Part shown: piece after piece, positions 1 to 64,000 of the stretch
How the letters are laid out: each line of letters opens with the position of its first letter
Numbering within the stretch: position 1 is the stretch's first letter
DNA from: Escherichia coli
GTDB taxonomy: Bacteria; Pseudomonadota; Gammaproteobacteria; Enterobacterales; Enterobacteriaceae
DNA: 64,000 bases
Reading direction: 5' to 3' (one strand)
Assembly: GCF_017348835.2 (NCBI RefSeq)
Contig: NZ_CP072315.1
Position numbers and translations under genes: made by a program
The notes under the pieces: model-generated
The model's database searches: none
What the model was told of the DNA's origin: nothing
Seen by the model: the letters and a program-made list of their open reading frames with translations, nothing else

Positions 1-1362
1 GTTGAATCTTCTACAAATGCCTGTGTTGGCATGATCCCATGTTCTGGAGGAACATGCGAAACTGGGCCAAAGGAAGAGAACAACGATTTTGGAAAAGTTG
101 CGGCTTATTCAAACATGGTTCAGTACATGCAGGGCGAAGCCAAATGCGAAGACCCTAACGATGCCAATTCCTGTTCTGTCTTTGAAGGAAAACCTGAATG
201 GTGTGGTCGTTCAGTAGGCTTTGTAAATGGCCTGGCAAAGACGGACTGCTGCGAAGCACCGCAGGGAACCGCAGGAGCACTTGAAGGTATCATGCTTGCC
301 GGATCTATGATCAGAAACACTAACTGGACCAGAGTTAATGCTCAGCTAATAAAATGGACCGGCGGTGATACAGGTACATGGGCTTCTATGTCCAATGCGG
401 TCGGTGAGTGGACTGCATCAGCTGGTAAAACAGTAGGGCAAATGTGGAACAATGTCACGAGCTCCTTAACGAGCGTATATGAAAACGTCGCTGGTAATCT
501 AAGCAGGGCAGTTGGGTCTTCCGCAACTTCTGGAGGGGCAGGAGGTGCTGGCCAGTTGGCACAGGAAACAATGTCCAGCTTCGGTATAGGTCAGCTTAAG
601 CAGATGGCAATGAAGAAAGCCTACGAATTGCTACCAGATACAGTTCGAGACTTTGTCTTTAAGAACGTTGCTACTACCGGAGGAGAGGTTGTCTTCTCGG
701 CTGCGGTTCAAAACTTTATGCTTGCATTAAACGTGATCGGTTGGATTTATACAGCCTATCAGGTCACTAAAATGCTTTTAGAAATGTTGGTAGCATGCGA
801 CCAGAAAGAGATGGAAGCTTCTATTCATAAGAATCAAAAATCCTGTTTTACATTAGATACGGAACGATGCGTCAAATATCTGAATGTTGGTTTCACAAAG
901 AAATGCGTTAAAAAAGCAACAGACATGTGCTGTTATAATTCCATGTTGTCACGCGTTATTATGCAACAAGCTTATCCGCAATTAGGAATAGACCCTGTCG
1001 CCTCTAATTGCGTGGGGCTATCAATAAAGCAAATACAGCAACTGGATTTCGATAAAATTGATCTGACGGAGTGGATTAATGATGCAGTTCAGGTAGGAGA
1101 AGTTCCTGATCAATATTCAAAATTCTCCGAAGAATCAATTGTGGAAAACTTACCATTCCAGAATGAGAACTATCAACTTCCATCAGAACGTACCAAGGAA
1201 GCAATGGGCGGTGAAGAAAATATGATAAAGGCCAGACAAGAAAATGCTCAGGCTATAAAAGAGGAAAATGTAGATTGTAGCTATTTACCTCGACCGGCCA
1301 TATGTGAGGTAGGTTCAACTACGCTGGATCCGGTTACGGGCAAGCAGTTGCCGAAATATTGA
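1..1362 (+). CDS. Cysteine-rich conjugative transfer protein, TraN-like (C-terminal part; frame open to window start)
   Basis: No stop codon between position 1 and the track ORF at 31; many spaced Cys (CETG, TDCCE, CVKYL, KKCVKK, DMCCYN) as in TraN-type outer-membrane mating-pair proteins; family assignment from memory. Confidence 0.4.
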   Translation, partial: VESSTNACVGMIPCSGGTCETGPKEENNDFGKVAAYSNMVQYMQGEAKCEDPNDANSCSVFEGKPEWCGRSVGFVNGLAKTDCCEAPQGTAGALEGIMLAGSMIRNTNWTRVNAQLIKWTGGDTGTWASMSNAVGEWTASAGKTVGQMWNNVTSSLTSVYENVAGNLSRAVGSSATSGGAGGAGQLAQETMSSFGIGQLKQMAMKKAYELLPDTVRDFVFKNVATTGGEVVFSAAVQNFMLALNVIGWIYTAYQVTKMLLEMLVACDQKEMEASIHKNQKSCFTLDTERCVKYLNVGFTKKCVKKATDMCCYNSMLSRVIMQQAYPQLGIDPVASNCVGLSIKQIQQLDFDKIDLTEWINDAVQVGEVPDQYSKFSEESIVENLPFQNENYQLPSERTKEAMGGEENMIKARQENAQAIKEENVDCSYLPRPAICEVGSTTLDPVTGKQLPKY

Positions 1363-1366
1363 AGAA

Positions 1367-1388
1367 GGGGCCGTTAGGCCCCTTTTTT
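1367..1388. terminator. Bidirectional intrinsic terminator between convergent genes
   Basis: GGGGCC-gtta-GGCCCC stem followed by TTTTTT, between the 1362 stop (+) and 1391 stop (-). Confidence 0.6.
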
Positions 1389-1390
1389 AA

Positions 1391-2263
1391 TTACTTGGCT
1401 TTCAATGTTTTTTCTGGGAAGCCTTTTTTACCGTATTCACCGGTAAAGAGGTAATAATCTTTTCCGTTGATGGAGGCTGCAACACCCCCTGGAGTTGTTG
1501 TATTTGGGCTATCAGAACGGAAAATGATACCCGAAAAATCAGCGCTTGTTTCGTTTCCTTTAAATGGGATGAACACATAACGAATTACAGCGTAATCACC
1601 AGCGGGAAGGTTTAGCTGAGGAATTTCGGTTCCTGTTGCGGGGCGAATCGCCTGAAAGCTGTACATTGAATCTGTAGGGAAAACATCAGCATCAGGCTTA
1701 GAGGGCAGATCACAGGTACTCCATTTATTGACGACTGCCATATCAATTTTACATGTGGCCAGAGCTGCTTTCTGTTTTTCAGGGTTGTATCCAAATGAGG
1801 CCTGAGTTGCTTTTGTATGCTCAAAAACATACTTAGCTCCTTCACGTACCAAACTTTCATCATTGTAAGGCAATTTTTTTGGATTGGGGACGAACACTAG
1901 GTATTGATTGACCTGGATGTATTCGGCGTCAGAAGAACTGTACAAAGAGCCGAGGCTCATGATCCCAAAACCTTTTAGACCGCCTGTTACGTAGCCCATC
2001 GAACTATTGATGAGATACTTAGAAAGAAAGTTGTCGGCATCCCCTCCAGGAGTAACCTCTTGCTCCTTAAAATTAACGTCGAAACCAGCAAACGAATAGG
2101 CATTCTTGGCGACAGAATCATTTGCTTTAGCATGCCAGTACTGGCCGTGACTGTACGCATTCAGAGCGGTGCCTGGCGTAGTGCCGGTGTCACCGGCACA
2201 ACCCGATAGGGAAAAACCAATGACGACAGAAGAGACCAGAGATACTAAACGTAAAAGTTTCAT
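1391..2263 (-). CDS. Lipoprotein of unknown function
   Basis: N-terminal signal peptide MKLLRLVSLVSSVVIGFSLSGC with lipobox LSGC; no recognisable catalytic motif. Confidence 0.6.
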   Translation of the reverse strand: MKLLRLVSLVSSVVIGFSLSGCAGDTGTTPGTALNAYSHGQYWHAKANDSVAKNAYSFAGFDVNFKEQEVTPGGDADNFLSKYLINSSMGYVTGGLKGFGIMSLGSLYSSSDAEYIQVNQYLVFVPNPKKLPYNDESLVREGAKYVFEHTKATQASFGYNPEKQKAALATCKIDMAVVNKWSTCDLPSKPDADVFPTDSMYSFQAIRPATGTEIPQLNLPAGDYAVIRYVFIPFKGNETSADFSGIIFRSDSPNTTTPGGVAASINGKDYYLFTGEYGKKGFPEKTLKAK

Positions 2264-2442
2264 TTAAAGCCCTTTTTGTAATGTCTTTTGGAGATGGAAC
2301 CATTATTCCATAGTCACGCGTTTCACAAACAACCTGATTGCATAAAAAAGGAAAAAAAGTGATTTCCAGTAGAACCAGCAGTACACAAGAAAAGCGCTTT
2401 TATAAAAATGTATAATTATTAAAACGAAGTAATGAGGTTGAA

Positions 2443-7024: not shown

Positions 7025-8083
7025 ATGTCTAATGCCGCTATGAAGTTAAATGAAACATCTTCTGATGCTTATGAAAAATTAGAAGCTCTTCTTTCCCCGG
7101 ATGTTATAAAGTTAAAACATTATGTGGATAAAGGTGAGTATCTTTTAGTTCTAGCAAAGGACCTTTTTGGTATTCCAGAAATGGATCCAAAGATGGCTGT
7201 GCCTGTTTTCAAAACTAAAACCTCGTATCGAGCTCCGCTGAACAAAGACTACATACCAAATCCCCGAATACTTGAACAAGTGGTTAAACTGCTTATCAGT
7301 CCGGATATAGATTTAAGTGTGTGTCTTAAAGGTGAGTCCGGTTCTGGCAAGACTGAAATGGTAATGTACATTAGCCACATGATGAATTGGCCGCTGACAA
7401 TTAAGCAGATCAACAGCAATATTCGAGTTGATGAGCTTGAAGGTGAGCGCAGTCTTAATGGTGGTAATACAGGTTTTGTACACAGCGATTTGGTAACGGG
7501 ATTTCGTAATGGTCACCTCATTCTTCTGGATGAAGTGGACAAAATCGATCCTGATACGGCAGCAAAACTTCACATGCCCATTGAACGTAAGCCCTGGTCA
7601 CTCAGTGCTAATGGTGGTGAGGTTATAACTGCTAATGGCTACACGCGATTTATTGGTACTGCAAACACAAACATGAGTGGAGGCGCTCGCCGGTTCGTTT
7701 CTTCTCAACGTCAAGATGCAGCTTTTATAAAGCGGTTCTTGATAGTTGAAATGGAGAAGCCCGACAAAGTTGCTTTAACCAATGTGCTTACTAAACGATA
7801 TAGCTCTTTGCCTTTTCAGGTCATTGAGAAGTTCGTAAGAGTAGCGATTGCAGTAAATGACTCTGGTACAGAAGACAGTGTGATGGATATTCGTCAATTA
7901 GTAGCTTGGGTTGGCACGTCGATGACGTTAAAAACCTTTAGTCTTCTTGACACTTTCAAAATAGCTTTTGCTTCTGCTTTACCTTTACATGTGGTCGATC
8001 TTGTTCTTCAAGCTATAGATCTTTCTCTTGGCGAAGACAAGGATAAATCGCTGGAGTATTTCACAGCAAAAAAGTCGAGTTAG
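7025..8083 (+). CDS. AAA+ ATPase, MoxR/CobS-like
   Basis: Walker A GESGSGKT, Walker B HLILLDEVDK; size (~350 aa) matches CobS/MoxR-type ATPases. Confidence 0.75.
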   Translation: MSNAAMKLNETSSDAYEKLEALLSPDVIKLKHYVDKGEYLLVLAKDLFGIPEMDPKMAVPVFKTKTSYRAPLNKDYIPNPRILEQVVKLLISPDIDLSVCLKGESGSGKTEMVMYISHMMNWPLTIKQINSNIRVDELEGERSLNGGNTGFVHSDLVTGFRNGHLILLDEVDKIDPDTAAKLHMPIERKPWSLSANGGEVITANGYTRFIGTANTNMSGGARRFVSSQRQDAAFIKRFLIVEMEKPDKVALTNVLTKRYSSLPFQVIEKFVRVAIAVNDSGTEDSVMDIRQLVAWVGTSMTLKTFSLLDTFKIAFASALPLHVVDLVLQAIDLSLGEDKDKSLEYFTAKKSS

Positions 8084-8418
8084 ATGGGATTTGTTATGAA
8101 ACCTCTGATATTTGTATCTCAGAGTTATCCCATCTTGAATTTAGTGCGTTTTTAAGTACGGATGGTGCTGCTACCATTGCTATAGCAAAAAACGGAACTA
8201 ATTTTACTGGACTTATGCAACTGAATAACGACTATTCTTTATTGTTTTATCATGATGGTAAAATAAATATGGAAGGTCTGATTAAACAAATGGAATTAAA
8301 AGGTTATATGTATCAGGGAGCAATGGGCAATGATGATGTTGTTGCTGAGTTTCCCGGTATTCTTTTAATTTCACCAGAGAAGCTTTAATATCAACCCTAT
8401 CGGGAAATCTTTCCCGTT

Positions 8419-8441
8419 GGGGAGGGTTTCCCCTTTTTTTT
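8419..8441 (+). terminator. Intergenic hairpin + U-tract directly upstream of an RBS
   Basis: GGGGA-gggtt-TCCCC followed by an 8-T run, then GGAG and ATG at 8452; an additional CGGGAAA/TTTCCCG hairpin at 8401-8416. Confidence 0.5.
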
Positions 8442-8451
8442 GGAGAAACCC

Positions 8452-9579
8452 ATGACTTTAAATACTTCAATGCTTAACAAAGTATCTGCAAAACAAATCT
8501 CTGAGAATTTTGCAAAATCATATCCAGATTTACTGGAAGGTGCAGTTATAACAAAAATTGAAATAAGTGGCTGTCAAGGATCGCGTCGAACCGATAAAAT
8601 CGATTTGTCTTATGATGGAGATGATATTACGGATCAAAAAAGCGTATCTAAAAGCGAAGTACGCTGGATTGACATAAAAGCCCTTAGCTTCAAAAGTACG
8701 ATTACCAGCAGAATATCAACTCTTTGCTCACGCTTGTGCATCCGCTATAGCAATATGTGGATTTTACCAGTATCCAGTATGGAAGAGTTTCTGGAAGGGG
8801 CCCAAGAGATTGAACGAGAGTTTCAGGCAGGTATTCAAAACGTTGTAGACAATTATGAGATGCATATTGAGGCTGAAAAAAATAGAAGCCCAAGAATGTC
8901 TTCTTTGATTGATCAGTTGAAATTAACTAAAGATGATTTCATAAAATCCTTTAGATTTAATATTGCTCACTTTATTCCTTTTACGCCTATTAGCGTTGAA
9001 GGTGATGAAACCCAGGACTACTATCAGGAACAATTGATAACAGATCTGGCAGAAGAAGCAATGAAGGTTTATGAAAAAATTAGCAAAAATAACAATTTGC
9101 GCTCAAGTACTATTGACCGACTGAAGCAAATGCAAAATAAGATCATTAGCTTCATGTTTATACATAAAGAGGCGGCAGTACTTGCAGAAGCTATAAAACA
9201 CATAATGAATAATTTACCTAAAGGTGCCATTTCTGAACCTCGCGACGTTGCGGTGTTACAGCAGTGGTTTTATTTCATGAGTGATGCTTCAATGTTAAAG
9301 CGTATTATTTCAGGAGAGCAAAAGGTTACTGACTGGTTGGAATCTATTACCAGATCATTTAATCAAAGCTCACAAACAGAACCGAACGCGCTACAGAACA
9401 CAGGTATTGAAGCTATTTTAGATTCAACAAATGTGTTCCAGGTTGAACCTGTCGTAGAGAACGATATAAATAACAGCACGTTTTCAAACACTGATCCTGT
9501 AGCTGAACCTGAGAAATCAGTTTCGCAACAGGAAGACAATGTTGAAAATGGTTTTGATATCGAGCTCAAAGGCTGGTAA
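8452..9579 (+). CDS. Hypothetical protein (375 aa)
   Basis: Track ORF starts at TTG 8440; ATG at 8452 has a GGAG RBS. No motif recognised. Confidence 0.5.
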   Translation: MTLNTSMLNKVSAKQISENFAKSYPDLLEGAVITKIEISGCQGSRRTDKIDLSYDGDDITDQKSVSKSEVRWIDIKALSFKSTITSRISTLCSRLCIRYSNMWILPVSSMEEFLEGAQEIEREFQAGIQNVVDNYEMHIEAEKNRSPRMSSLIDQLKLTKDDFIKSFRFNIAHFIPFTPISVEGDETQDYYQEQLITDLAEEAMKVYEKISKNNNLRSSTIDRLKQMQNKIISFMFIHKEAAVLAEAIKHIMNNLPKGAISEPRDVAVLQQWFYFMSDASMLKRIISGEQKVTDWLESITRSFNQSSQTEPNALQNTGIEAILDSTNVFQVEPVVENDINNSTFSNTDPVAEPEKSVSQQEDNVENGFDIELKGW

Positions 9580-9599
9580 CTGTTTGCTTTATTAAAAAC

Positions 9600-9641
9600 C
9601 CCAGATGGGTACTTCACCATCTGGGTGAGTACCCCTTTTTT
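9600..9641 (+). terminator. Intergenic hairpin + U-tract
   Basis: CCCAGATGG-(8 nt)-CCATCTGGG stem, then ACCCC and TTTTTT, 16 nt before the ATG at 9657. Confidence 0.55.
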
Positions 9642-9656
9642 ATAAAGAGGTATTCT

Positions 9657-11669
9657 ATGAAATTAGATCTTAAATCATCACCGCGCCATATTAAGCGTTT
9701 ACAGAATATAGCAAAAGTCATTAGCGGCTTAGGCGATGTAAGAGTTGTAATAGACGACAATACCAAAGGACCGTATTTTGATCCTGTAAATAAAGTTTGT
9801 GTTTTACCAAACGGCGATTATAGCGATGATGACTTTGTCAGTCTGATTGAAGGTTTTACCTGTCATGAAGCTGGTCATGGTCGCTATACCGACAGCGAGG
9901 TTTACAGTGACGCCTTTAATAGTGTTCTCAAGTCATCTGAAGGGTTTACACGCTTCGATGACGGAATGAATGCAGAGTTTGAGAGCCTCGCTGAGAAACG
10001 TAAAGCTTATAGCAGGGCAAAACGTCTTACCGGGCTTATAAATCTGTTCGATGATGTACAGATGGAAGAGAAGGTTGGTAACGATTATCCGGATGCAAAG
10101 CGGCGGCTTGCAGCCACTTACGCACTGATGGTTAAAGCCGGAAGGATGACTCCTGATATATCTTCTCGTCCGGAAAATCCTGTCCTATTTATTGAGTGGT
10201 ATCTGCTTAACTCATTGCGAGTAAAAGTCCTTCAGCAGGCAGGTCACAAAGAAACACTCGATCCGTTTTTTGACTATGCCCAAAAGATACTTTCTCCAGT
10301 AATTTCTGATGTTGAGGAAATTTTTCATGATGCTCTTGGTTGTGAAAATACTCAGGGCTGTGAATCCCTTGCTCGTAAGACCCTGGCTCTTTTAGAGAGA
10401 CTGCGGGATGAGGCAAGGGAACAACAGCAGCAGACAGAGCAGGAGGAGCAGGAGGCATATGATGAATCCGAGACCGATACCGATACCGATACCGAATCAG
10501 AAGATAAATCGCTTGAGTCGACTGATAGTCGTGAGGATGATTCTGAGGACGATAGTGAAGGTCAGGCAGATACTTCCGATAACTCTGATCTTGCTCAAGA
10601 GGGATGTTCTGAGCCTTCAGAACTTGCTGAAGATAACGAGGGAAATAATGAACCCACCGGTGGCAATCCCACAGGTGATAACATTATTGAAGACGATACT
10701 GATGCGATTAACCCTTCCGAGAGTGAATCAGATGAAGCCAGTTCGACTAACGTTGAAGATGAAAGTAACTTTTCATCGGCTCAATGGGAGATACTGGCAG
10801 ATTTGTTGGATGCCTTTCTTGGCAGTGATGAGGATAGCGAAGATTATCACGATGCTTTGGCTAAAGAGATTGAAGGTATTGCATCAAAAGTATCCGATGA
10901 CGTGAAAGCCGAATTCGGTGCTTCTGAATGGGATATCCCTGATCTCCTTATCGATTTGAATGTTTACAATGAGGCTTTGTCTCTGAGTCATTCAATCGGT
11001 AGCGACTTGTCTGTTTTACAGCAGGTTAAAATGCGTGGCCGAAACAAAACTCATGAGCGTGGAATTACCTTCGATGGAAATCGATTAATTCTGTCACCAA
11101 TGGGAGTTCGTGATGTCTTCAGAGCTCAAAGCGAATCTAAAAATAGAGGGCATGTTGGCCTCGTATTAGTTCGTGATATTTCAGCGTCAATGGCTAATGA
11201 TGAAAGATATATTCATGCCATTAAGTCAGATCTTGCTTTATCGATGGCCGCTGAAAGTTTGTCAAAAATGCATGTCTCCAATATAGTCTTTCCCTTCAAG
11301 GAAAGTGAATTTGAGATTATCAAAACGTTTGATCAAAGCGTTGAGGAATCTCTATCGAAATTCACTCTTGGATGTAAGGGTTATTATACCCCTACGGGAT
11401 CGGCTTTAATGGCAGCTGTTGATCTGTTACTTGACAGCCAATTCGATAGGAAAATAATTTTTCTTATAACTGATGGTTATCCGAATAAATCGGAATTTAC
11501 TATCGGCGAAGTTATGGAAAAGGCTAAATGTAATGGAATAGAAATCGTTGGTGTTGGTATTAAGACTGATGAAATAATTGGTTTTGAAACGGACACTTTC
11601 GTAACAGTTGATGATACTTCTTTATTGTCTATTGAAGTCAGTAAGCTAGTTCATCAAATACTTTCTTAA
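9657..11669 (+). CDS. vWA-domain protein, CobT-like, with acidic linker and N-terminal HExxH motif
   Basis: C-terminal vWA with MIDAS DISAS and ITDG; central highly acidic D/E/S/T-rich segment; HEAGH at residues 70-74. Architecture resembles CobT, the usual partner of CobS-like ATPases. Confidence 0.7.
   Translation: MKLDLKSSPRHIKRLQNIAKVISGLGDVRVVIDDNTKGPYFDPVNKVCVLPNGDYSDDDFVSLIEGFTCHEAGHGRYTDSEVYSDAFNSVLKSSEGFTRFDDGMNAEFESLAEKRKAYSRAKRLTGLINLFDDVQMEEKVGNDYPDAKRRLAATYALMVKAGRMTPDISSRPENPVLFIEWYLLNSLRVKVLQQAGHKETLDPFFDYAQKILSPVISDVEEIFHDALGCENTQGCESLARKTLALLERLRDEAREQQQQTEQEEQEAYDESETDTDTDTESEDKSLESTDSREDDSEDDSEGQADTSDNSDLAQEGCSEPSELAEDNEGNNEPTGGNPTGDNIIEDDTDAINPSESESDEASSTNVEDESNFSSAQWEILADLLDAFLGSDEDSEDYHDALAKEIEGIASKVSDDVKAEFGASEWDIPDLLIDLNVYNEALSLSHSIGSDLSVLQQVKMRGRNKTHERGITFDGNRLILSPMGVRDVFRAQSESKNRGHVGLVLVRDISASMANDERYIHAIKSDLALSMAAESLSKMHVSNIVFPFKESEFEIIKTFDQSVEESLSKFTLGCKGYYTPTGSALMAAVDLLLDSQFDRKIIFLITDGYPNKSEFTIGEVMEKAKCNGIEIVGVGIKTDEIIGFETDTFVTVDDTSLLSIEVSKLVHQILS
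10473..10493 (+). repeat. In-frame hexanucleotide tandem repeat (ACCGAT) x3.5 encoding TDTDTDT
   Basis: accgataccgataccgatacc read directly in the acidic linker of the vWA gene. Confidence 0.6.
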
Positions 11670-51963: not shown

Positions 51964-52374
51964 ATGGCTATTTTAGCAATCATTGCAGTTATCGCCCTGG
52001 GTGGGTACGCCTACGGATTTATTAAAACCCGTGAGCTGAGCGCTTTGCGTAAAGAAATGAAACTATACGTGGATCGCATGGAAGCGGCGGAGCTGGACTT
52101 ACACGCAATCAGAAGTGTAGCGGAGCACCGGTTGCACGGTGCAGGTAAACAGTTTGCCGACCTTTACAGCCGTATCGACGGTGCAACTGTGACGCTGACA
52201 CCCGAAGATCAGCTGTTACTGGCAACGATGCCATTTAATATTCAGGATGTAGAAGACATCGTAAACGAGCGCGGTCCAAAGACAATTAGCGGCCGTCCAT
52301 TCTGGGAAGTTGAGCCAGGCCCGCATGATTATGAATATGGCCCGCAATATCCGTATTTCCCAGACCAGCGCTAG
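51964..52374 (+). CDS. Hypothetical protein with N-terminal TM anchor
   Basis: MAILAIIAVIALGGYAYGFI hydrophobic N-terminus; 12 nt upstream of the HNH gene. Confidence 0.45.
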   Translation: MAILAIIAVIALGGYAYGFIKTRELSALRKEMKLYVDRMEAAELDLHAIRSVAEHRLHGAGKQFADLYSRIDGATVTLTPEDQLLLATMPFNIQDVEDIVNERGPKTISGRPFWEVEPGPHDYEYGPQYPYFPDQR

Positions 52375-54183: not shown

Positions 54184-54226
54184 GTTGGAGTCATTACCGG
54201 AGAATTGTATCATTAACAGTCTAGTT

Positions 54227-54892
54227 CTAACGACTACCACTTTTAAGTATGTATTGAGCCAGTTTTATATTCAGGCACACCATATTGCACTCTAGCTCTT
54301 TCATCATTCTTGAAGAACTCTTAATTAAGTATTCTTCAAGTGGGCCAGCATATGCCCCTGATGTCACGATCGTTAGTTGCGTAAGAGGATGAGTCAAACT
54401 CTCAATGCCCTTCAGGATGTCATTCTGGACAGCAGCAATATAAACAGGCGAAGCCGCAATCAAATATTCATCATTCGGGCTGGACTGCATTAACTGGCTT
54501 ATAGTTGCGCAACGGTTATGCTTACCTAGTGATTTTGTGATGGCTTTCCACCAGAGATCATGCCTGAATGGTACTTGATGAAATGTCGCCTCGTAAGAGG
54601 GCACCCGATCTCGACTATTTAAAAACCCCATCCCGGCAGAGATTATCCACAACTCCAGATTTCTGGTTGAGTTTAAAATTTCCTTTGCCGTAGACCAGTG
54701 ATTACCTGAATACAAGGACAATGCCGGTACCGCCTGATTACTTCTGGCGTCGTCTACAATGTTACTCCAGGCATATGCTGCGTCGTCCGGGGTTTGTTTT
54801 GGATCTATGTCCAATGTCGGCCAGACGTGGCCCTGATGATTCTTGCCCTTTGTACAGGAAGTGATTAAGTGTACTGAGCGTTCAGAGAACAT
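54227..54892 (-). CDS. Hypothetical protein (221 aa)
   Basis: ORF only; no motif recognised. Confidence 0.45.
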   Translation of the reverse strand: MFSERSVHLITSCTKGKNHQGHVWPTLDIDPKQTPDDAAYAWSNIVDDARSNQAVPALSLYSGNHWSTAKEILNSTRNLELWIISAGMGFLNSRDRVPSYEATFHQVPFRHDLWWKAITKSLGKHNRCATISQLMQSSPNDEYLIAASPVYIAAVQNDILKGIESLTHPLTQLTIVTSGAYAGPLEEYLIKSSSRMMKELECNMVCLNIKLAQYILKSGSR

Positions 54893-54949
54893 TATCTTCC
54901 TTACATACCCATAGAACAGCTTTCTAAGAACGGTGGGCTCGCCTGAAAA

Positions 54950-55330
54950 TTACAAATCAGCCCCTTTCACGGCATCATTTTGATTCTTCGCGTCTGCCCC
55001 CAGTAAGATGACCGGTTTTCTGCATGACAGTGTTATTCCTAACAAACGCAACACAAAACCACGCCAGCCAGAGCAAATTTTTTCATTTGCTGCGTAAAGC
55101 CTATTGTTTTCTCTTTTAAGCTTCGCCCACTCGTTACAGAGGGTAACATCATCAAGCGCTGTTATATGCTTCGCCTCACCTTCGACGATAACGGTATGGA
55201 TACCGTATGCTGTAAATCTCATACTATTTTCCAGAACCCAGTTGCGGTATTCGTCGAGTCCACCTTCGGAACCGGTAGCTCTGCGCCACATTTCAATTTG
55301 CTTGTGTGATGGGTCAAGTGTACTTGTCAT
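54950..55330 (-). CDS. Hypothetical protein (126 aa)
   Basis: ORF only. Confidence 0.4.
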   Translation of the reverse strand: MTSTLDPSHKQIEMWRRATGSEGGLDEYRNWVLENSMRFTAYGIHTVIVEGEAKHITALDDVTLCNEWAKLKRENNRLYAANEKICSGWRGFVLRLLGITLSCRKPVILLGADAKNQNDAVKGADL

Positions 55331-55960
55331 TGAAGCCTCGTCTCAGCGATAACGCTTGAAATAGCCCGCTTTGGTCATCATGAAATTAGCCATCTGACTG
55401 GCGATTTGATTGTATCTTACTCATAGTGCCCTACCTATAGGTTAAAAAGGGGCATTTTCGCTTTATAGCGTGTTCAGCAGCATCAATCCTCCCAAGAAAG
55501 GCTGGCTTATTAAGCCGGTCCATCATTTTCTGTATATCTCTCATCAATTTTTATATCCGCCCTGGAGTGCACCGTTCAAGCACACCGATTAGGCAGATAG
55601 TCACTAGTTAACTCTTTACTAGTGACTAAATTCCATTGATATACGTGACAACGTCACGTCATGAAAGCTTATAAATGCCTATTTTTCATACAATGGGATT
55701 TAATTAGGAGTAAATCCCATAGGCTTACATAAGGATGACAATTAAAAGCGTTAAATATCAACCAGATAGAATGATTACCCCCAATTAATGGGCTCATCAC
55801 ATTATTTCACTGGCTGGGGTTATTGCTGGCATATCTGAAAGTGCTAATATGTTAGTCATTAGTAATTAGTAAAGCCTTTACTAAACGCGTTTCTACGTAA
55901 ATTCTATAGGTTTTATAGTGTCCTACCTTTGCTCAAATCAAAATGTTCTGACATACCAAA

Positions 55961-56791
55961 ATGGAGTGTAAAATGACTCAAAACCAGGGTTCTGAGCCAG
56001 TACCGGCGAGCCGGACAGGGCAGCTCATCAGCGCCCGGGATATGGCCATGCAGAAATTCGAAGAAGGGATGCGGTTAATCTCGGAAGCGTCGGAACTGTG
56101 CGGTCTCTCTCTCTTCACCAGCAGAATTATGCAGCCCAACGCATTTGGTCTTCCGTCGTCACTGGATCGCACCATCGAGGAGGGGCGTAAGGAAATTGAC
56201 CGTAAAACGTGGAAAAGGCTCTTTGAAGAAACAGGTATGGACCGGTACTGGAACCATAAGCAAAAAGAAGCCTTTAACGAATCCCTTCGTACGGATCCGC
56301 CCGTCGCTTCCCTGGAGATTGTTAAGGGAACATTACAGCATGCACTGGCTAACAGACGAGACACCCTTGCAGAAGGTTTCGTTGATGTTCTCAACAAGCT
56401 TGACCGAAGTTTCAAAAGCAATGCCAGGCAATATACAATGCCAAAAAAGCTTGTTCTTCGGGGGATTTTTCCTGGTGTGAACGTGCTGAGGTACAACGGT
56501 TTCTCGCAGGACAATCACTTTTGTTTACGCGACTTTGAGAATATTGTATGCATCTGTTCTGATACTCCAACACCTGCAACCGGCGGTGGGCTGAGTATGG
56601 TCGACAGGCTGACGGCCATGAGAAATACAGAATTCACAGGCGAGGTCAGTGATGAGAATGGCTGGCGGTGTCGCCTGTTTGAGAATGGAAACGTTCATAT
56701 TTGCATCGACAGTATCTCGCTTCTGAATGCTCTGAACGATCTTATCAGCATATATTTTGCAAACCAGCTTCCGGCCGCAGGAAAAAAATGA
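55961..56791 (+). CDS. Hypothetical protein (276 aa)
   Basis: ORF whose stop overlaps the start of the next gene (ATGA); no motif recognised. Confidence 0.5.
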   Translation: MECKMTQNQGSEPVPASRTGQLISARDMAMQKFEEGMRLISEASELCGLSLFTSRIMQPNAFGLPSSLDRTIEEGRKEIDRKTWKRLFEETGMDRYWNHKQKEAFNESLRTDPPVASLEIVKGTLQHALANRRDTLAEGFVDVLNKLDRSFKSNARQYTMPKKLVLRGIFPGVNVLRYNGFSQDNHFCLRDFENIVCICSDTPTPATGGGLSMVDRLTAMRNTEFTGEVSDENGWRCRLFENGNVHICIDSISLLNALNDLISIYFANQLPAAGKK

Positions 56792-57993
56792 TGATTGAAA
56801 ATGATAAAGAAAAAAGCCTGAACGATGCTACCCCGCCAGAGGTGCAGAATGACATCCGCAGCGAATCCACTGAAAAATCAAAGGAAATGGGTCGTTCAAG
56901 GTACTCATCTATCGCGATGATCGATTACTTCAATGCAATCGAACGTCTGTGCAAAGAGAAAGAAATTAACCCGGAAAATATCGATCTGAGCTTCAAAGTT
57001 CACTGGCTCAGAAACGCTGTTGGCGGCTCGTTTGCAAGGTCACAGGAGATGTTCGCGGAGTACCAGAAGTATGTTAAAGAGGTTCCTGAAGAGGCCCGTT
57101 ACCTGGATATACCCGATGAGGTAAAGGTTGCACTCGGCGATATTATCTCGTACATCACCTGGCACTACCGTAGAAGCTATACCGCAATACAGAATGATAG
57201 TGTTAAAAAAGCTGAAGCACGTAGCATGCAGCTGGAGGAGGAGGTAACGCAGCTGTTACAGCGGCTTGAGCAAAGCGCTACCGATATGGATGAGCTGAAA
57301 CTTGAGAATCAGGCACTACAGGGTCGATTAGAGATCCGGGACAGTACCGTCAAGGAGTTAGAAACAAGGCTGAATGTTGCCGAAGCAGAACTCGAAACCT
57401 GCCATCACCAGTTAGATAGCACACGGCATGAATTGAGCCTCGCACAGCAGTCAAATGACTCACTCTCCCAGCAACTGGCTGAACGTAAAACAGAGATCGC
57501 TGGTCACCTTGAATATCAAAAAAAGCTGAACGAAGAGATCAACACGCAGCGTTCTGATAACGCCGGTCTTTCCAGACAATGCGACCAGTTAAGTCAGACT
57601 GTGTCAGATACAAAGGCAGAGAGGGACAGGTTTGAACAGGAATTGATTGCTGCACAGAACCTTTGTACTGAGCTGAAAAGTGCACTGTCCGGGAAAGAGG
57701 GTGACCTGGTGGCGGTGAATGCCGAGCTTACTGAACTCCATAAACTAAACGAGTCGCTGAGCGCCGACCTGAATAAAGTAACTTTGGTCAGCCAGGGCTA
57801 TGAAGCGGAAGTGGCTGAACAAAGCAATGAACTCAAAACGCTCCAGGCCAAAGTAATGAAGCTGGAAGCTACCCTGGAGGCGGAGAAAACAATCTCAGAA
57901 TCCCTAAAAGGCACCATTGATACATTAACTGGTGCAATGGCAGGGGGAGGTACTGGAAAGTCAAAACAGCCGCGTAGCAGAAAAACATCATGA
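56788..57993 (+). CDS. Coiled-coil protein, KfrA-like (tentative)
   Basis: N-terminal globular region followed by ~250 aa of heptad-like Q/E/L-rich sequence and a basic tail (GKSKQPRSRKTS); resemblance to KfrA is architectural only. Confidence 0.4.
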   Translation: MMIENDKEKSLNDATPPEVQNDIRSESTEKSKEMGRSRYSSIAMIDYFNAIERLCKEKEINPENIDLSFKVHWLRNAVGGSFARSQEMFAEYQKYVKEVPEEARYLDIPDEVKVALGDIISYITWHYRRSYTAIQNDSVKKAEARSMQLEEEVTQLLQRLEQSATDMDELKLENQALQGRLEIRDSTVKELETRLNVAEAELETCHHQLDSTRHELSLAQQSNDSLSQQLAERKTEIAGHLEYQKKLNEEINTQRSDNAGLSRQCDQLSQTVSDTKAERDRFEQELIAAQNLCTELKSALSGKEGDLVAVNAELTELHKLNESLSADLNKVTLVSQGYEAEVAEQSNELKTLQAKVMKLEATLEAEKTISESLKGTIDTLTGAMAGGGTGKSKQPRSRKTS

Positions 57994-58056
57994 TAAATGA
58001 AGCCAGGTTGATACACTTCTCTGCATCCCCTGGCACATAAGAACTTCTGCGGACAT

Positions 58057-58260
58057 TCAGCCCGTCCGCAGGAGTTTTCGTCCTTCAGTCAACAAATGCA
58101 CTACCTTTTTTGAGTCTCCACTTTCCAGAGCAGAAAACACGTTACCGATTCTACCAACAGCTTGTATCTGAGTGATAACCCCAGTCTTGTAATCATCTAG
58201 GATCCCTGACAGGAAAGCGTTCAGTTTTGTCTGTTCGCTTAGCGAAAGCATGTAGGACAT
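58057..58260 (-). CDS. Hypothetical small protein (67 aa)
   Basis: ORF only. Confidence 0.3.
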   Translation of the reverse strand: MSYMLSLSEQTKLNAFLSGILDDYKTGVITQIQAVGRIGNVFSALESGDSKKVVHLLTEGRKLLRTG

Positions 58261-58272
58261 TTTTTCTCCATT

Positions 58273-59592
58273 TTAAGCAGGTGTGTCAGTTGAAAGAGGT
58301 TTGCGTGATTCTGGAAAATGAGGCAGCACCATAGTTTCAGATGCTGTGGTCGCATCCCAGTGCCACCATCCATAAGGCCCATATTCACGGTTGTAATAAT
58401 CTTTTTTGAGTTGCTTTCGGGCCAGATAAGCAGGAGTGGCCATACCAAATACTTCCATCGGGAACGGCTTATCGCTTTTTGTGTCGAGCAGGTAGAAGTC
58501 AGGGAACACCTCACTAATACTCGCATCATAACGCATGGGCTTAACGTACTGCCGGTGCTCTGCATCCAGCTTTTCTGCAACAACCGCCTCATAGGAGGAG
58601 TCCAGAGGTATCCAGTTCTCGCTAACGTGCATCAGCACAATTTGATGAGCTCTTACAGAAGGGCCTCTGCCGGTTACCACAGCTGGTGACGTCAACGCAA
58701 AGACAACTATTTTCGCCCCGGATTTCCATGCTGCGTACTCCGATGAAAATCGTTTCTTTACGCTATCCCAATGGACTTCTGAATTGAAAAAAATCAGCGG
58801 TAGCCCCCCAAAATTCCGCAGGGGTAAAAATTTAAGTGGCTTCTCATGCTTTTCAGCATCGTAGCGAGGTAAAACTGACAGGAGCATGAGACGTTTATCA
58901 CTCATCGCCTGTGATGAAAGACGCTGAATTTGCGACTGAGCGACAGGTTGTTTCGGGTCAGGTACACCAATGAATAAATGGTCACCTATGCAGGCTCTGC
59001 CGGTACGAATTTGTTTAGCGGTTTCAAGCAGACGATACCGTACCAGTGAATCGTTACGTTTCCCTGCCATTTTCGGGTACCAGACATTCAGACCAGACTC
59101 TGTCCACAAAAGACTAAGCAAGCCCAGGAGGGTCATTGAGGCCTGACCTCCTTCTGGTCGCTGAACATGGGGCAGGGGAGGCACTTCTGATTTTTCAGGA
59201 GGATCTTTCTCTGTCATACCGATACCGAGCCTTACAGCCATATCACCTTCGGTTGTAATCCGGACCACACCACTCGCATATCCTTTCAGGCCGGTATGCC
59301 GGGCATCAAGGGAGAAGAATACACAGGAAGGATCATGCTCAATGCCCGTGTTAGCGGCTTTGACGAGAATAAAGGCATCACCGTTCGGTAAAGCACGAAC
59401 ATAAAGTCGCTTTTCTCCTTTTCCACGACATCCGCAGGTGATGACTGATTTTTGACCTGAGGTGTGGTGTGCCTTTTTAAGAGCCGACTGCCACCCTTTA
59501 GCAAACTCATCCTGCGTTTGAAAGTCAGGTGAATACCTTTTGACGTTTGGATCGTCGTCGTAAGCAATCATCACTGCGAATTTTTGGCTCAT
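58273..59592 (-). CDS. Hypothetical protein (439 aa), downstream of dcm on the same strand
   Basis: Large ORF with good start context; no catalytic motif recognised. Confidence 0.5.
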   Translation of the reverse strand: MSQKFAVMIAYDDDPNVKRYSPDFQTQDEFAKGWQSALKKAHHTSGQKSVITCGCRGKGEKRLYVRALPNGDAFILVKAANTGIEHDPSCVFFSLDARHTGLKGYASGVVRITTEGDMAVRLGIGMTEKDPPEKSEVPPLPHVQRPEGGQASMTLLGLLSLLWTESGLNVWYPKMAGKRNDSLVRYRLLETAKQIRTGRACIGDHLFIGVPDPKQPVAQSQIQRLSSQAMSDKRLMLLSVLPRYDAEKHEKPLKFLPLRNFGGLPLIFFNSEVHWDSVKKRFSSEYAAWKSGAKIVVFALTSPAVVTGRGPSVRAHQIVLMHVSENWIPLDSSYEAVVAEKLDAEHRQYVKPMRYDASISEVFPDFYLLDTKSDKPFPMEVFGMATPAYLARKQLKKDYYNREYGPYGWWHWDATTASETMVLPHFPESRKPLSTDTPA

Positions 59593-59614
59593 AGTAGTCT
59601 CCTAAACAGGAAGT

Positions 59615-59782
59615 TTAATATCCCAACCAGAGCAACACTTCCTGAGCGTCATACTGTTCCTTTACGCCCATGTCGCTAAAGAATTCTTCGAAATCTGTTT
59701 CGGGAACGCAATGCCTGGACAGTTCTTGTAATGCTCGTTCTTTAGATACCGTCTCACCTTCAGCTGATTCGAAATACGTCAT
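59615..59782 (-). CDS. Possible small acidic protein (55 aa) between dcm and the 439-aa gene
   Basis: Translation MTYFESAEGETVSKERALQELSRHCVPETDFEEFFSDMGVKEQYDAQEVLLWLGY; acidic; not in the track (<60 aa). Confidence 0.3.
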   Translation of the reverse strand: MTYFESAEGETVSKERALQELSRHCVPETDFEEFFSDMGVKEQYDAQEVLLWLGY

Positions 59783-59842
59783 GGTTGACCTCTGACATTA
59801 TTACAACAATCTTAAGCATTTAAATTGATGAAGGAGCTCAGG

Positions 59843-61312
59843 TCAGCTGACTTCGTCGTAAAACTGCCGCAAGCGCTGGGAGGCTGCAAATTCAATTCGT
59901 GACTTCAGCAGTTTGGCGACGGCCGCAAAGACATCAACGACCACGGAGTTCCCAAACTGTCTGTAAGCCTGTGTATTGGACACAGGGATACGGAAAACAC
60001 TTTCCCCGGGTTTATCGAAGCCCATTAGCCTGCTGCATTCACGTGGCGTTAGCATGCGTGGCCGACGGTCCATGTTGTATGTGTTATGGAAATCAGTTTC
60101 TCCCAGTTCATGAGACCAGCCCCGATCAATAAGAATTTCAGATCCGTCTTTCATATAGCGGCTTGAGAGGGTTCTGGTGACACTATTAACATTGGAAGGA
60201 TCTACTAGTCCAAAACCAAAACCATTGCCTTTTGCCGCATGTTTCTTTGCATAGTTGTATAAGTACTCCCAGAGTTTAGGGGAGAGGATGTATTTACTAT
60301 CTACGCTCGGATCCAGTAAATCTGAGAGAGAAGGGCGCTTGTCCGGATAAAAGTCTTTAATGTCTCTCAGAGTAAAACCGTCTTTCAGACGTAGGTCGCG
60401 GCGAAAACCAATAAGGACGATACGTTCACGGTGCTGGGGTCGGAAATGACGGCCATCGATGACTTTAGGATCATCCGCGCCCGTGCTTTCGCTGTTTGCG
60501 ACGTCGTAGCCAAGCTCATCGAGCGTTTTCATGATGATGTTAAAGGTATTACCCTTATCGTGACTCTTCAGATTTTTTACGTTTTCCAGAACAAAAATTG
60601 CAGGTTGTTTTGCCCGGATGATCCTGGCCACATCAAAGAAGAGCGTACCCTGAGTGTCGCACTCGAAACCGTGTTTGCGACCCATAGAGTTCTTTTTACT
60701 GACACCGGCGATGCTGAATGGCTGGCATGGAAATCCCGCAAGAAGAACATCATGATCCGGGATAGAGGCATCGATAAATTTGTATGCCTCGTCATCAGTA
60801 ACCTCGGGCCGGTTGCTAAGAGTGATGTCACGGATGTCTGAATTGAAGCGGTGCTCGTTCTCATCGCAATACCAGTTCGCCCGGTAAGTACGGCTGGAAT
60901 AAGTATTCCATTCGCTCGTGAAAAGACATTTACCACCGATGGCATCAAATCCGCTTCGCAGTCCACCTATCCCTGCAAACAGATCGATAAAGCTAAAGTG
61001 CCTGTCCTCATAATCAGCAGGTCGTGAAGGTATTAAAGTCTGTAGATAGCGTCCATCTGCGATACTCAGCTCACAATGCTCAGGTATGCATGTAACCTGA
61101 CGTTTAAGGGATGCACGGGACCAATTACTGCCATTTTCATCATTTAATACCTGAGCCAGATATTTCAGGTCATAAATGGTCGAAGCTGTTAACAAAGTTT
61201 TGTGGATCAGAGATGGTGTTTTATCCACATCATTCAGGTCTGTCTCAAGATCATGAGTGTAACGTTTCATCCAAACTCTCTCAGGAATAATATCTTTGAG
61301 ATAGATTAACAC
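59843..61312 (-). CDS. dcm: DNA cytosine-5 methyltransferase, Dcm orthologue
   Basis: Motif [11 protein letters not shown], motif [10 protein letters not shown], motif VI ENVKNL; long stretches near-identical to E. coli Dcm (recalled) including C-terminal RLMGF...QFGNSVVV. Confidence 0.9.
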
Positions 61313-61481
61313 GCTTAATTTGGATTATTTTTTGGTTCAGGTTCTAAATTTATTGTGATTATTCTGCCTTTAAGTTGCAAAAAGATTGGTTTTAAGCCCG
61401 CCCATGAAATAATGACTTGTTAAAATACTGCCTGTAAATAGGCTTGTGGATACATGTCTGTACTCAACAAATCAAGGTGAA

Positions 61482-62000
61482 ATGATGTTTTTTTTAACAA
61501 AGTTACTTTTGCCCATCATGATTGTTGTATTCCCAGTGGCGTCCTGGGGGAACTCAACAACTTTTGAGGCAAAGGTGGTTAAGATTGTTGACGGTGACAC
61601 CATAACTGCGTTGGATGCTCAAAACACAACCATCAAAATACGGATGTATGGTATAGACGCTCCTGAATCTAAACAGGCTTTTGGCCAAAAAGCAAAACAG
61701 GCCTTAACCACAGCTATAGCAACTAAAATCGTTACCGTGATAGACCATGGTACGGATATCTATGGCCGTATGTTAGGTACCATCTGGTTAGATGGATATG
61801 ATATCAATGCCTCTATGGTGGACAGTGGATATGCGTGGGTTTATCGGTTCGAAGATAACGCCATTGTCCCTGGCTATATCAAATATGAATCCGCAGCACA
61901 AAAGGAGGCAAAAGGGTTATGGGCAGACACCAACCCTGTCCCACCATGGCAGTGGAGACAGGCAAACGAAAAGCCCAGAAAGGTGAAAGAGAAGAAATAA
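61482..62000 (+). CDS. Secreted thermonuclease (SNase-like) homologue
   Basis: Signal peptide MMFFLTKLLLPIMIVVFPVASWG; SNase core VDGDTI...RMYGIDAPE. ATG at 61482 with AAGGTGA RBS; track start 61446 is GTG. Confidence 0.75.
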   Translation: MMFFLTKLLLPIMIVVFPVASWGNSTTFEAKVVKIVDGDTITALDAQNTTIKIRMYGIDAPESKQAFGQKAKQALTTAIATKIVTVIDHGTDIYGRMLGTIWLDGYDINASMVDSGYAWVYRFEDNAIVPGYIKYESAAQKEAKGLWADTNPVPPWQWRQANEKPRKVKEKK

Positions 62001-62002
62001 CC

Positions 62003-62899
62003 ATGATGAAAGAGCCTCATCCGTTACTTCAGTTGGTACTAAACGATTCCGGTCGTCTAACCATGCCTGTTTATTATAGAGATCAACAGTATTGCCCGAC
62101 TTGCCTTACAAAGGTGTTGAAGAGTGAGGATGGAAGTTTGGCGCACCTCGGGGAAATAAATCAAAATACATGTAGACCTTCTATTTCAGTAGTTGTGACA
62201 AAAGCAATTATTGAAATGTTATGTGACGGGGAAAAAATATATGTAAATCCAATACGACACCGAGGCCGGGTGCTGGCACCCTCAGTAATTTTTTCTCCCG
62301 ACACTCACACTTTCAAACCGTTTATAAATACAGACTATCAGCCTGTGGGAGCAAACTGGAAAAGTGAAAAGGGATATAAACTCGGTCTGTTTTATCTCAA
62401 AGATCGAGCCAACTCTATCAATAAAGAGGAATTTGATTTCATTGCCGTTATAGACCCTGAGGCAATGCAGAAAGAATTTATTTCGGCCTGGTCTGAGGTT
62501 GATGAAAAAAATCCATTGGAAACGCTGAAGCAGATCTTACGATCTAAAAACAACTCTTCTTTATGGGTAAAATGGCCTGGCAAAATTGAGCATGCGCAAA
62601 AAGGAAATTACAACGAAAATTACTGGTTCGATTATCAATCTGATAATCAGGAAGTGAACTGTACGGTCTCTGTTGTAGGTATCGAAGGTAACAGTTCCGG
62701 TGAGACAATTTATAGATTGCAAACTTTGCTAAAGCGTAAGCTCAATGAATATCAACTGGTTCGGTCTTTAGGGACTATTATGCTTCTTGATAATACCGGG
62801 AATATGATTCCATCAAACCATCCTTATTTTGAAGTCATCTCAAAAGCATGTATAAATGGAGTGCGTGACTTTGTTCGTCAAAACCCGTGGGTAGTCTGA
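62003..62899 (+). CDS. Hypothetical protein (298 aa)
   Basis: ATG 62003 immediately after the nuclease stop; no motif recognised. Confidence 0.5.
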   Translation: MMKEPHPLLQLVLNDSGRLTMPVYYRDQQYCPTCLTKVLKSEDGSLAHLGEINQNTCRPSISVVVTKAIIEMLCDGEKIYVNPIRHRGRVLAPSVIFSPDTHTFKPFINTDYQPVGANWKSEKGYKLGLFYLKDRANSINKEEFDFIAVIDPEAMQKEFISAWSEVDEKNPLETLKQILRSKNNSSLWVKWPGKIEHAQKGNYNENYWFDYQSDNQEVNCTVSVVGIEGNSSGETIYRLQTLLKRKLNEYQLVRSLGTIMLLDNTGNMIPSNHPYFEVISKACINGVRDFVRQNPWVV

Positions 62900-62946
62900 C
62901 GGTCAACTATAAAGCATAATATAATTAGTAATAACAAGGAACAGAC

Positions 62947-63354
62947 ATGAATGAAAACTCAGTAATCTTAATAAGTTTATTTTGGTTTTTTTTGGGATCG
63001 AGTGTTGTAGCTGGTTTTATGGATGCATCATTATATTGCTGGATTTTTGCAGCCATAAGCGCATTGTTTCTTCTTTCGGTGATACAAACACCAAAGGAGT
63101 TAACGGTATCTATTAGTCATATGACAAGCAAAACGCTGATCTCAAAGACAGATGATGGATACACATTTAGCATTTCACCTTACGGAGACGGGTACCGCTT
63201 ATCAGTCTCGCCTGAAAATCGTCACAATGGTACCCAAAGCTTTGACGGCTGGTTCCCACGTTTTTTTTCCGAACCACAGTATGCCAAATCATCTTTAACT
63301 AAATTTCTCGGTGAGTCCTTAGTATGGGAAGAAGATTCAAGTAATGCTCTATGA
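62947..63354 (+). CDS. Hypothetical membrane protein (135 aa)
   Basis: Two N-terminal hydrophobic helices. Confidence 0.45.
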   Translation: MNENSVILISLFWFFLGSSVVAGFMDASLYCWIFAAISALFLLSVIQTPKELTVSISHMTSKTLISKTDDGYTFSISPYGDGYRLSVSPENRHNGTQSFDGWFPRFFSEPQYAKSSLTKFLGESLVWEEDSSNAL

Positions 63355-63399
63355 GATTACTTATTATAAATTTTTCTATTAATCTCCATGGAGTGATAT

Positions 63400-63654
63400 A
63401 TGAATTTGGCCTATTTTTTATTTTTGTCTATAACTGTTATGCTTACGAGCTTTATTATTAAATCACTTGTCGTATTGGTAAAGTTCAAATTACTTCGTGA
63501 TGAACGTCTCGAATATACCAGCAATAAAAATATTGATGAGATGTACGATTTAATGAATGCGAAGGAAGAAATCCTCATAAGGCATCATAAGCAGATGTTG
63601 GCATTGCATCTTTCACTATTAATATTCGTTCTATTTATTGCTTACATTTACTAA
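63400..63654 (+). CDS. Small membrane protein (84 aa)
   Basis: Hydrophobic N- and C-terminal helices. Confidence 0.4.
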   Translation: MNLAYFLFLSITVMLTSFIIKSLVVLVKFKLLRDERLEYTSNKNIDEMYDLMNAKEEILIRHHKQMLALHLSLLIFVLFIAYIY

Positions 63655-63691
63655 AAATAATTTTATTCAACATTTCAACAAAGGGTTTTCA

Positions 63692-63979
63692 ATGGAAAGC
63701 TTCGAAACTGAACAAATGATTCAATATGCTTTCTACATAAATATCGTAATAACGACTGGTTTGGCATGGTTTTGCTTGCGGTCAGGATTGCATTACAATT
63801 TTTTCAGAAAAGCAGAGAGTGCCAGAACAAAAGGGCTGAGTAGTACCTCTACTGAACACGGTCCAGCAATAGTGAGACTAAAGAAGCTACAAGCATTAGT
63901 AGATTTTATTAGTAACTGTGCTTTTCTAATCCTTTCAATTGGCACAGCTTATATTTTGTATGTTTGGAGCCACAGTTAA
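63692..63979 (+). CDS. Small membrane protein (95 aa)
   Basis: ATG 63692 with AAGGG RBS; the track's upstream extension overlaps the previous gene. Confidence 0.4.
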   Translation: MESFETEQMIQYAFYINIVITTGLAWFCLRSGLHYNFFRKAESARTKGLSSTSTEHGPAIVRLKKLQALVDFISNCAFLILSIGTAYILYVWSHS

Positions 63980-64000
63980 CTCATACGAGGTAACTTCGGC

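Follow-up and report, generated by a model that had tools for sequence, protein, structure and literature searches.

Does the uneven base composition of a large resistance plasmid record the joining of DNA from different sources, or is it in part an old property of the plasmid itself? The question is raised by a 64,000-nucleotide stretch of Escherichia coli contig NZ_CP072315.1 (hereafter the window), in which a tellurite-resistance (ter) gene cluster of comparatively high guanine-plus-cytosine (GC) content lies amid DNA that is in part markedly AT-rich. The window is a segment of an IncHI2 conjugative resistance plasmid, differing by a single mismatch from positions 34,112-98,111 of the Salmonella plasmid p2016062-242 (NZ_CP090540.1, typed as IncHI2A, MOBH and MPF-F, with repHI2 elsewhere on the record), and a megablast search of the plasmid collection with window positions 20,000-44,000 gave 100% matches to many large Enterobacteriaceae plasmids. 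We consider it probable (roughly 0.85) that the window consists of an ancestral IncHI backbone that was already heterogeneous in GC, into which a 20-kb ter module and several smaller lineage-specific pieces were inserted.

The annotated gene order runs from the end of the Tra1 region (trhN, trhI) through mostly unnamed genes to the Tus-like, tyrosine recombinase and hha genes, and then through the ter cluster, hipBA and IS1 to further backbone genes, including those for a DUF1173 protein, a Dcm methyltransferase and a thermonuclease. The IncHI-type transfer genes trhN and trhI lie inside the window, as is expected of an IncHI2 backbone. When every window protein was mapped by tblastn on the whole IncHI1 plasmid R27 (NC_002305.1), 39 window genes were found to have R27 homologues in conserved order, as is expected of a shared IncHI backbone. 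To the left of ter (1-26,968) all 29 genes have homologues in unbroken collinear order (48-90% amino-acid identity), comprising the 21 genes of the domain up to 20,650 (48-89%) and the eight genes between 20,651 and 27,133, whose R27 counterparts are GC-richer still (0.42-0.51). The same search over the whole of R27 returned a homologue for none of the 20 ter genes (27,135-47,085) and for none of the four small genes at 47,176-48,603. Homology restarts with the gene at 48,976-49,368, is broken by hipB, hipA and two small genes (49,972-52,374), and continues with the HNH gene and then from 54,227 to 62,899, most genes beyond 48,976 being shared with R27. On R27 itself, the CoiA-N-domain gene and the homologue of the 48,976-49,368 gene lie about 1.4 kb apart, with one small open reading frame (ORF) between them.

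The two plasmids share not only gene order but also composition. Per-gene GC in the window and in R27 is strongly correlated (r = 0.90, n = 38), with R27 higher by 0.028 on average, so that the GC structure of the backbone is older than the split between IncHI1 and IncHI2. The window genes shared with R27 span GC values from 0.32 to 0.555, with means of 0.452 at 20.7-27 kb and 0.473 to the right of ter. Judged from this comparison, much of the GC heterogeneity is an ancestral structure of the backbone and not a product of recent assembly, and ter was inserted where the backbone was already moderately GC-rich. The modular assembly proposed by the initial annotation is upheld for ter, on comparative evidence and not on GC alone. 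We have also considered whether the AT-rich backbone genes evolve faster, but the correlation between GC and amino-acid identity to R27 was not significant (Spearman rho = 0.30, p = 0.065).

Further evidence for the insertion comes from the other replicons in which ter is found. A search with window positions 24,001-49,000 recovered ter at the same site, junctions included, in about 1,155 plasmid records (at least 80% covered); in IncHI2 it is located at the window's site throughout, and in some IncHI2 lineages homology stops at about 47,142 or 48,624. The chromosome of E. coli 1070/13 contains window positions 27,134-47,150 as one piece of 20,017 bp (97.9% identity), inside an island where an IS21 pseudogene and an IS66 transposase gene border it. 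Across 5,426 complete E. coli genomes there are 714 matching chromosomal places, most of them corresponding to the sub-block 33,762-46,149, which O157:H7-type chromosomes carry at about 97% identity. The matches in pGMI17-003_1 and in pB18196_2, a plasmid typed IncHI1B, begin at precisely the same base on the left, 27,134, with about 94-95% identity. In such IncHI1B-type plasmids ter is bordered on one side by a umuC remnant, next to dsbA and Tra2 genes, and on the other by the thermonuclease/Dcm/DUF1173 group. This is a backbone site different from that of the window, and ter is inverted there with respect to the backbone. The ter alignment of the window with pGMI17-003_1 covers 18.3 kb at 94.8% identity, compared with 71.1% for the neighbouring backbone, of which only 3.5 of 10 kb can be aligned. 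Klebsiella plasmids carry terZABCDE only, at about 78%. The ter unit is thus found in a chromosomal island and at another site in IncHI1B-type plasmids, and it is absent from R27; together, these comparisons show that movement of the block between replicons is much more recent than the divergence of the IncHI backbones. Earlier work describes the cluster as mobile among genomes (PMC11003894) and the R478 ter cluster as highly homologous to the chromosomal O-island copies of O157:H7 (PMC3064760).

The block has the gene content of a ter cluster: RefSeq and AMRFinder annotate terZ, terC, terD and terW together with TerB, TerD-family and VWA proteins. Its left end falls one base past the stop codon of the kinase gene and its right end just beyond the terminator hairpin of terF. 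The left end is the same base (27,134) in three unrelated contexts, and the right end falls at about 47,142-47,150 in several. The repeats that came up in the search for terminal repeats represent TerD and VWA paralogy, which blastp confirmed. The tyrosine recombinase (23,967-25,142) was rejected as the importer of ter, since an orthologue with 63.6% identity occupies the same position in R27, which has no ter. The ter GC of 0.512 exceeds that of both flanks (0.419 in the left 10 kb, 0.477 in the right 10 kb), as would be expected of an island.

Along the whole window (GC 0.453), the profile is less simple than two classes of DNA. By span, GC is 0.402 at 2.4-26.9 kb, 0.513 at 27-47 kb, 0.484 at 47-55 kb and 0.439 at 55-64 kb. 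The initial annotation had described the ter region as GC-richer than two markedly AT-rich stretches at 2.4-26.9 and 55-64 kb, and had expected steps near 27 and 47 kb. It placed the ter limits accurately, and the contrast of 0.513 with 0.402 is real; the left stretch is AT-rich on average, but its last part (20.7-27 kb) is intermediate, at 0.44-0.45. The description of the right stretch fails, since 56-61 kb lies at 0.476-0.481 and lower values are confined to 54-56 kb (0.43) and 61.1-64 kb (0.381). When local steps were measured with 4-kb flanks, the GC increase was found to be split into two equal stages, +0.081 at ~19,450, inside the backbone, and +0.081 at ~27,500; a rise near 27 kb therefore exists, but an equal one precedes it. 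The step near 47 kb could not be recovered: the contrast at the right end of ter (47,150) is only −0.025, a drop of −0.062 falls at 45,100 within the ter block, and after a dip over 47-49 kb GC rebounds (+0.037 at 48,900) to 0.49-0.52 over 49-54 kb. Recursive likelihood-ratio segmentation places the dominant change-point at 25,960 (log-likelihood ratio, LLR, 226), the runner-up at 61,120 (LLR 72.7), and weak ones at 45,450, 20,720 and 14,200. Among shuffled sequences (n = 200) the LLR never exceeded 7.6 when single bases were permuted, 42.5 with 300-bp blocks, 78.8 with 1-kb blocks or 171 with 3-kb blocks, all below 226. The GC signal is one of long-range compositional persistence, not of sharp edges.

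At the codon level the separation is complete. Per-gene GC at third codon positions (GC3) is 0.27-0.41 in the 21 genes of 1-20.6 kb and 0.52-0.62 in the 20 ter genes (Mann-Whitney p = 4.6e-8), with means of 0.343 and 0.554. First and second positions (GC1 and GC2) differ as well, 0.487 and 0.348 in the AT-rich backbone against 0.595 and 0.416 in ter, and the gap between the two is thus 0.21 at the third position, 0.11 at the first and 0.07 at the second. Since the gap is largest at the third position, background composition is favoured over protein-level causes. The host reference consisted of 28 core genes taken from a 50-kb piece of E. coli chromosome (GC3 0.572), to which ter GC3 is close. 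The distance to this set in relative synonymous codon usage (RSCU) is smallest for ter (0.087, compared with 0.177 for the AT-rich backbone). The compositional outlier is the AT-rich backbone and not ter.

Table 1. Coordinates, strand and composition of the features of the window
Feature	Position	Strand	Composition	Basis or remark
Ancestral IncHI domain, AT-rich: trhN 3' part, trhI, AAA/DUF3150/VWA/toprim cluster, unnamed genes	1-20,650	+	GC 0.394, GC3 0.343	R27 comparison
Ancestral domain of intermediate GC: Tus-like, tyrosine recombinase, hha, CoiA-N-domain gene	20,651-27,133	.	GC 0.443, GC3 0.468	R27 comparison; Pfam
hha, Hha/YmoA family, 70 amino acids	25,313-25,525	+	GC 0.39	Pfam PF05321, E = 8.6e-19
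CoiA-N-domain gene	25,886-26,968			R27 homologue
ter module, 20,017 bp, 20 genes	27,134-47,150	.	GC 0.512, GC3 0.554	Single-piece match in E. coli chromosome; same left end in pGMI17-003_1
ter part 1: kinase, PP2C, TerY-C, VWA, TerD-family, VWA	27,135-33,363	-		
AT-rich patch in ter (second)	33,421-33,720		GC <0.37	200-bp windows
ter part 2: terW, DUF4236, HpcH, StiP, hypothetical, PRTase, ATP-grasp	33,829-40,543	-		
AT-rich patch in ter, divergent intergenic region between ATP-grasp gene and terZ	40,361-40,940	.	GC 0.334	200-bp windows, GC <0.37
ter part 3: terZABCDEF	40,866-47,085	+		
Small genes, source of the local GC dip	47,151-48,975	.	gene GC 0.42-0.47	Absent from R27
Backbone gene, 130 amino acids, no Pfam family	48,976-49,368	+		95.4% amino-acid identity to R27 homologue
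hipB/hipA toxin-antitoxin pair and two small genes	49,972-52,374	+	GC ~0.50	Absent from R27
HNH-endonuclease backbone gene	52,387-53,202	+	GC 0.531	79.3% amino-acid identity; R27 homologue 151,485-150,688
IS1 in place of 8,070-bp backbone segment	53,431-54,192	+		Flanks 99.95% identical to pSI85-1
R27-shared backbone of intermediate GC: DUF6884, DUF4942, DUF1173, Dcm methyltransferase	54,193-61,120	.	GC 0.463	
AT-rich backbone again: thermonuclease and unnamed genes	61,121-64,000	+	GC 0.381	Change-point 61,120; R27 homologues

These results can be accommodated by two layers. The first is the ancestral IncHI backbone. Its AT-rich domain occupies about 4.6-20.6 kb and resumes after 61 kb (GC 0.33-0.42), its moderately GC-rich domain occupies 20.7-27 kb and 49-61 kb (GC 0.44-0.55), and both predate the split between IncHI1 and IncHI2. 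The second consists of the ter module (27,134-47,150, GC 0.512), inserted into the moderately GC-rich domain, and of smaller lineage-specific additions, namely the small genes at 47.2-48.9 kb, hipBA and IS1. In GC3 and codon usage ter resembles enterobacterial chromosomal genes, and it has been exchanged between chromosomes and IncHI-type plasmids. It probably came from, or cycled through, enterobacterial chromosomes, and the low GC of the backbone may be the usual state of long-resident plasmid DNA.

One of the smaller additions also bears on how the AT-rich backbone may be regulated. In the IncHI2A plasmid pSI85-1, the segment between the DUF6884 and HNH genes that IS1 replaces in the window contains an H-NS-family gene, an ATP-dependent helicase gene, an HNH gene and small ORFs, and R27 has its hns gene (148,225-148,629) in a neighbourhood syntenic with window 53-55 kb. 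A tblastn search of the 242-kb plasmid with the E. coli and R27 H-NS sequences detected no H-NS homologue (best E-value 6.4), and the 126-amino-acid ORF at 54,950-55,330, considered as a divergent H-NS, was dismissed, as it matches no Pfam family. An H-NS about 81% identical to that of R27 occurs on many large Enterobacteriaceae plasmids (736 records in the 80-90% class), and the IS1 arrangement of the window occurs in only 27 plasmid records. The lineage of the window has thus lost the plasmid hns, in an 8-kb deletion associated with IS1, and kept hha. Plasmid H-NS proteins are thought to reduce the cost of plasmid carriage.

The Hha-family gene that the initial annotation had pointed out is genuine, with a clear Pfam match and a product sharing 90% amino-acid identity with R27 Hha and 50% with E. 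coli Hha. H-NS-Hha complexes silence AT-rich acquired DNA (PMC2686267, PMC7366339); at 37 °C, R27 transfer is repressed by H-NS and Hha of both chromosomal and R27 origin (PMC2686267), and the expression of R27 hha is itself higher at this temperature (PMC7366339). The two AT-rich parts of the window are indeed more AT-rich than the host (GC 0.394 and 0.381; GC3 of the former 0.343, compared with 0.572). As a proxy for H-NS binding, we counted 200-bp windows with GC below 0.40, which make up 55% of those in 1-20.6 kb, 61% in 61.1-64 kb and 4% in ter. Putative silencing of the AT-rich stretches by H-NS and Hha is a reasonable proposal, in which the AT-rich backbone would be the preferred target of host H-NS aided by plasmid Hha. 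The plasmid-encoded H-NS partner present in R27 and many IncHI2 plasmids is missing, and any such silencing here must therefore use host H-NS. More speculatively, and in our view unlikely, the unnamed genes at about 4.6-20.6 kb, most of them strongly diverged from R27, might be kept AT-rich by this putative silencing, with the IS1 deletion marking a natural 'Hha-only' IncHI2 sub-lineage. If so, that sub-lineage would have to rely on host H-NS alone, and the consequences for fitness cost, host range or thermoregulated transfer would be measurable.

Several alternatives to an old, uneven backbone with a later ter insertion have to be weighed. The one nearest to the initial annotation holds that a uniform AT-rich backbone flanks a GC-richer ter, that composition steps near 27 and 47 kb, and that each compositional class is a separately sourced module. 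Its mean values (0.402 and 0.513) are correct and the ter limits defined by comparison (27,134 and 47,150) fit the annotated coordinates closely, but we regard it as rather unlikely. The wide GC range of the R27-shared genes (0.32-0.555) follows a pattern that R27 shares (r = 0.90), half of the increase in GC is located at ~19.5 kb inside the collinear backbone, and no lasting step exists at 47 kb, 56-61 kb being at 0.48; from these three results together, the composition classes do not correspond one-to-one to modules. Much less credible is the explanation that ter is ancestral to IncHI, was deleted from R27, and differs in GC as an old internal feature. The location of ter elsewhere and in the other orientation in IncHI1B-type plasmids, its 94.8% identity between lineages whose backbones are only about 71% identical, and the presence of the 20-kb unit, 97.9% identical, in E. 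coli chromosomal islands make this very improbable, even though at least 94% of IncHI2 plasmids carry ter, which ranks as core (PMC11058233), and the IS1 and RepFIA insertions of R27 near the corresponding junction show that rearrangement took place there. Protein function or expression, acting through amino-acid composition or codon selection, could also produce a GC difference without any difference in history. The differences at first and second codon positions would fit such a cause, and the host-core-like codon usage of ter could reflect translational selection; the gap is nevertheless biggest at the third position (0.343 versus 0.554) and the comparative evidence for transfer is independent of what causes the GC difference, which leaves this quite improbable.

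Chance fluctuation of local base composition would account for the fact that no 4-kb contrast (maximum 0.081) reaches the 95th percentile of the 1-kb block shuffles (0.134), but its probability is negligible, as the LLR of 226 exceeds all 200 shuffles at each block size (maximum 171 with 3-kb blocks) and the GC3 ranges are disjoint. That failure of any single GC step to beat the block shuffles does count against the two-layer reading that we prefer, and so do three further results. Composition-normalised tetranucleotide signatures fail to separate backbone from ter cleanly: the halves of the AT-rich domain correlate with each other at r = 0.76 and backbone with ter at 0.67-0.78, so that heterogeneity within the backbone equals the backbone-ter difference, and we dropped the signature as a test of separate origin. 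The ter ends show no terminal direct or inverted repeats, no adjacent tRNA gene and no dedicated integrase, and the mechanism and direction of movement are therefore not visible. The high-affinity H-NS motif tCGATAAATT (PMC2094087), allowing up to two mismatches, occurs 32 times in 1-20.6 kb with 27.0 expected (8 times in ter with 10.3 expected); this density is no higher than composition predicts, and our literature search found no H-NS chromatin immunoprecipitation data or mutant transcriptome for IncHI2.

Some other properties of the backbone deserve mention. R27 contains an IS1 and a RepFIA (repE) replicon inserted between hha and the CoiA-N-domain gene (R27 155,773-157,603), adjoining the junction that carries ter in IncHI2 (window 25.5-27.1 kb), and the hha/CoiA-N-domain stretch seems to tolerate insertions in both lineages. 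On the other side of ter, the gene at 48,976-49,368 exceeds all others of the window in GC (0.555, the same value as in R27). With 95.4% identity to its R27 homologue, where its neighbours reach 48-90%, it is unusually conserved for the IncHI backbone. The hipBA segment further to the right is a second lineage-specific GC-richer insertion, distinct from ter. The AT-richest stretch (14,179-19,185, GC 0.33-0.38) holds five successive same-strand ORFs of about 300 amino acids that match no Pfam family, among which paralogy could be detected for the last two alone (27% identity, E = 2e-36) and whose R27 counterparts are among the most diverged of the backbone (48-67% identity). Upstream of it, the cluster of AAA ATPase, DUF3150, VWA-domain and toprim-domain genes at 7,025-13,308 is conserved, with 68-80% identity to R27.

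The sign of the GC skew broadly follows the direction of transcription in 1-18 kb and 27-47 kb. It is steadily positive (+0.05 to +0.14) over 1-18 kb, where all genes are on the plus strand; in ter it is positive over terZABCDEF, whereas over the minus-strand genes most values lie slightly below zero, except around 33-35 kb and 38-40 kb, where they are close to zero or weakly positive. An Rfam scan of the window gave zero matches. The 242-kb plasmid has an overall GC of 0.469, with 0.36-0.47 in the transfer and maintenance regions and up to 0.50-0.61 in the resistance region, and ter is its GC-richest backbone-associated stretch.

That IncHI2 plasmids are mosaic and that the ter cluster is mobile is established knowledge, and the initial observation was in this sense correct but ordinary and already known. 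Gilmour et al. (2004, as cited in PMC6764697) reportedly compared R478 with R27 and defined the shared IncHI backbone; our literature search for a published GC analysis of R478 found nothing usable. The practical value of the present analysis is one of orientation, as it separates the ancestral IncHI backbone from later additions (ter, hipBA, IS1), and GC alone would have misassigned several backbone stretches. The loss of hns with hha kept, in a widely circulating multidrug-resistance lineage, is the one item of some practical interest.

Compared with known systems, the window resembles the H-NS/Hha silencing systems (Hha and H-NS of R27, and the Sfh 'stealth' function) in having an Hha orthologue and an AT-rich backbone, but differs in that its lineage is without the plasmid H-NS partner. 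The chromosomal ter islands OI-43/48 of O157:H7 have the same gene set as the ter of the window. Published chromosomal ter islands are inserted at tRNA genes (PMC11003894), whereas the ter of the window is plasmid-borne at a fixed IncHI2 site, without an adjoining tRNA gene or prophage-like integrase. It shares with the R478/O157 type the genes terZABCDEF and terW, the terXY-type VWA and TerD genes, and the ATP-grasp/PRTase/HpcH/StiP group; R478 ter confers resistance to tellurite, phage or colicin experimentally, according to Whelan et al. 1995 as cited in PMC3064760. As a core component, ter belongs to at least 94% of IncHI2 plasmids (PMC11003894, PMC11058233). The window as a whole differs from the R478-type IncHI2 backbone in the replacement of 8,070 bp, including the plasmid hns, by IS1 in its sub-lineage, and agrees with it in the Trh transfer genes, the Tus-like gene, hha and the ter cluster; with the IncHI1 plasmid R27 it shares a collinear gene order, lineage-specific insertions aside.

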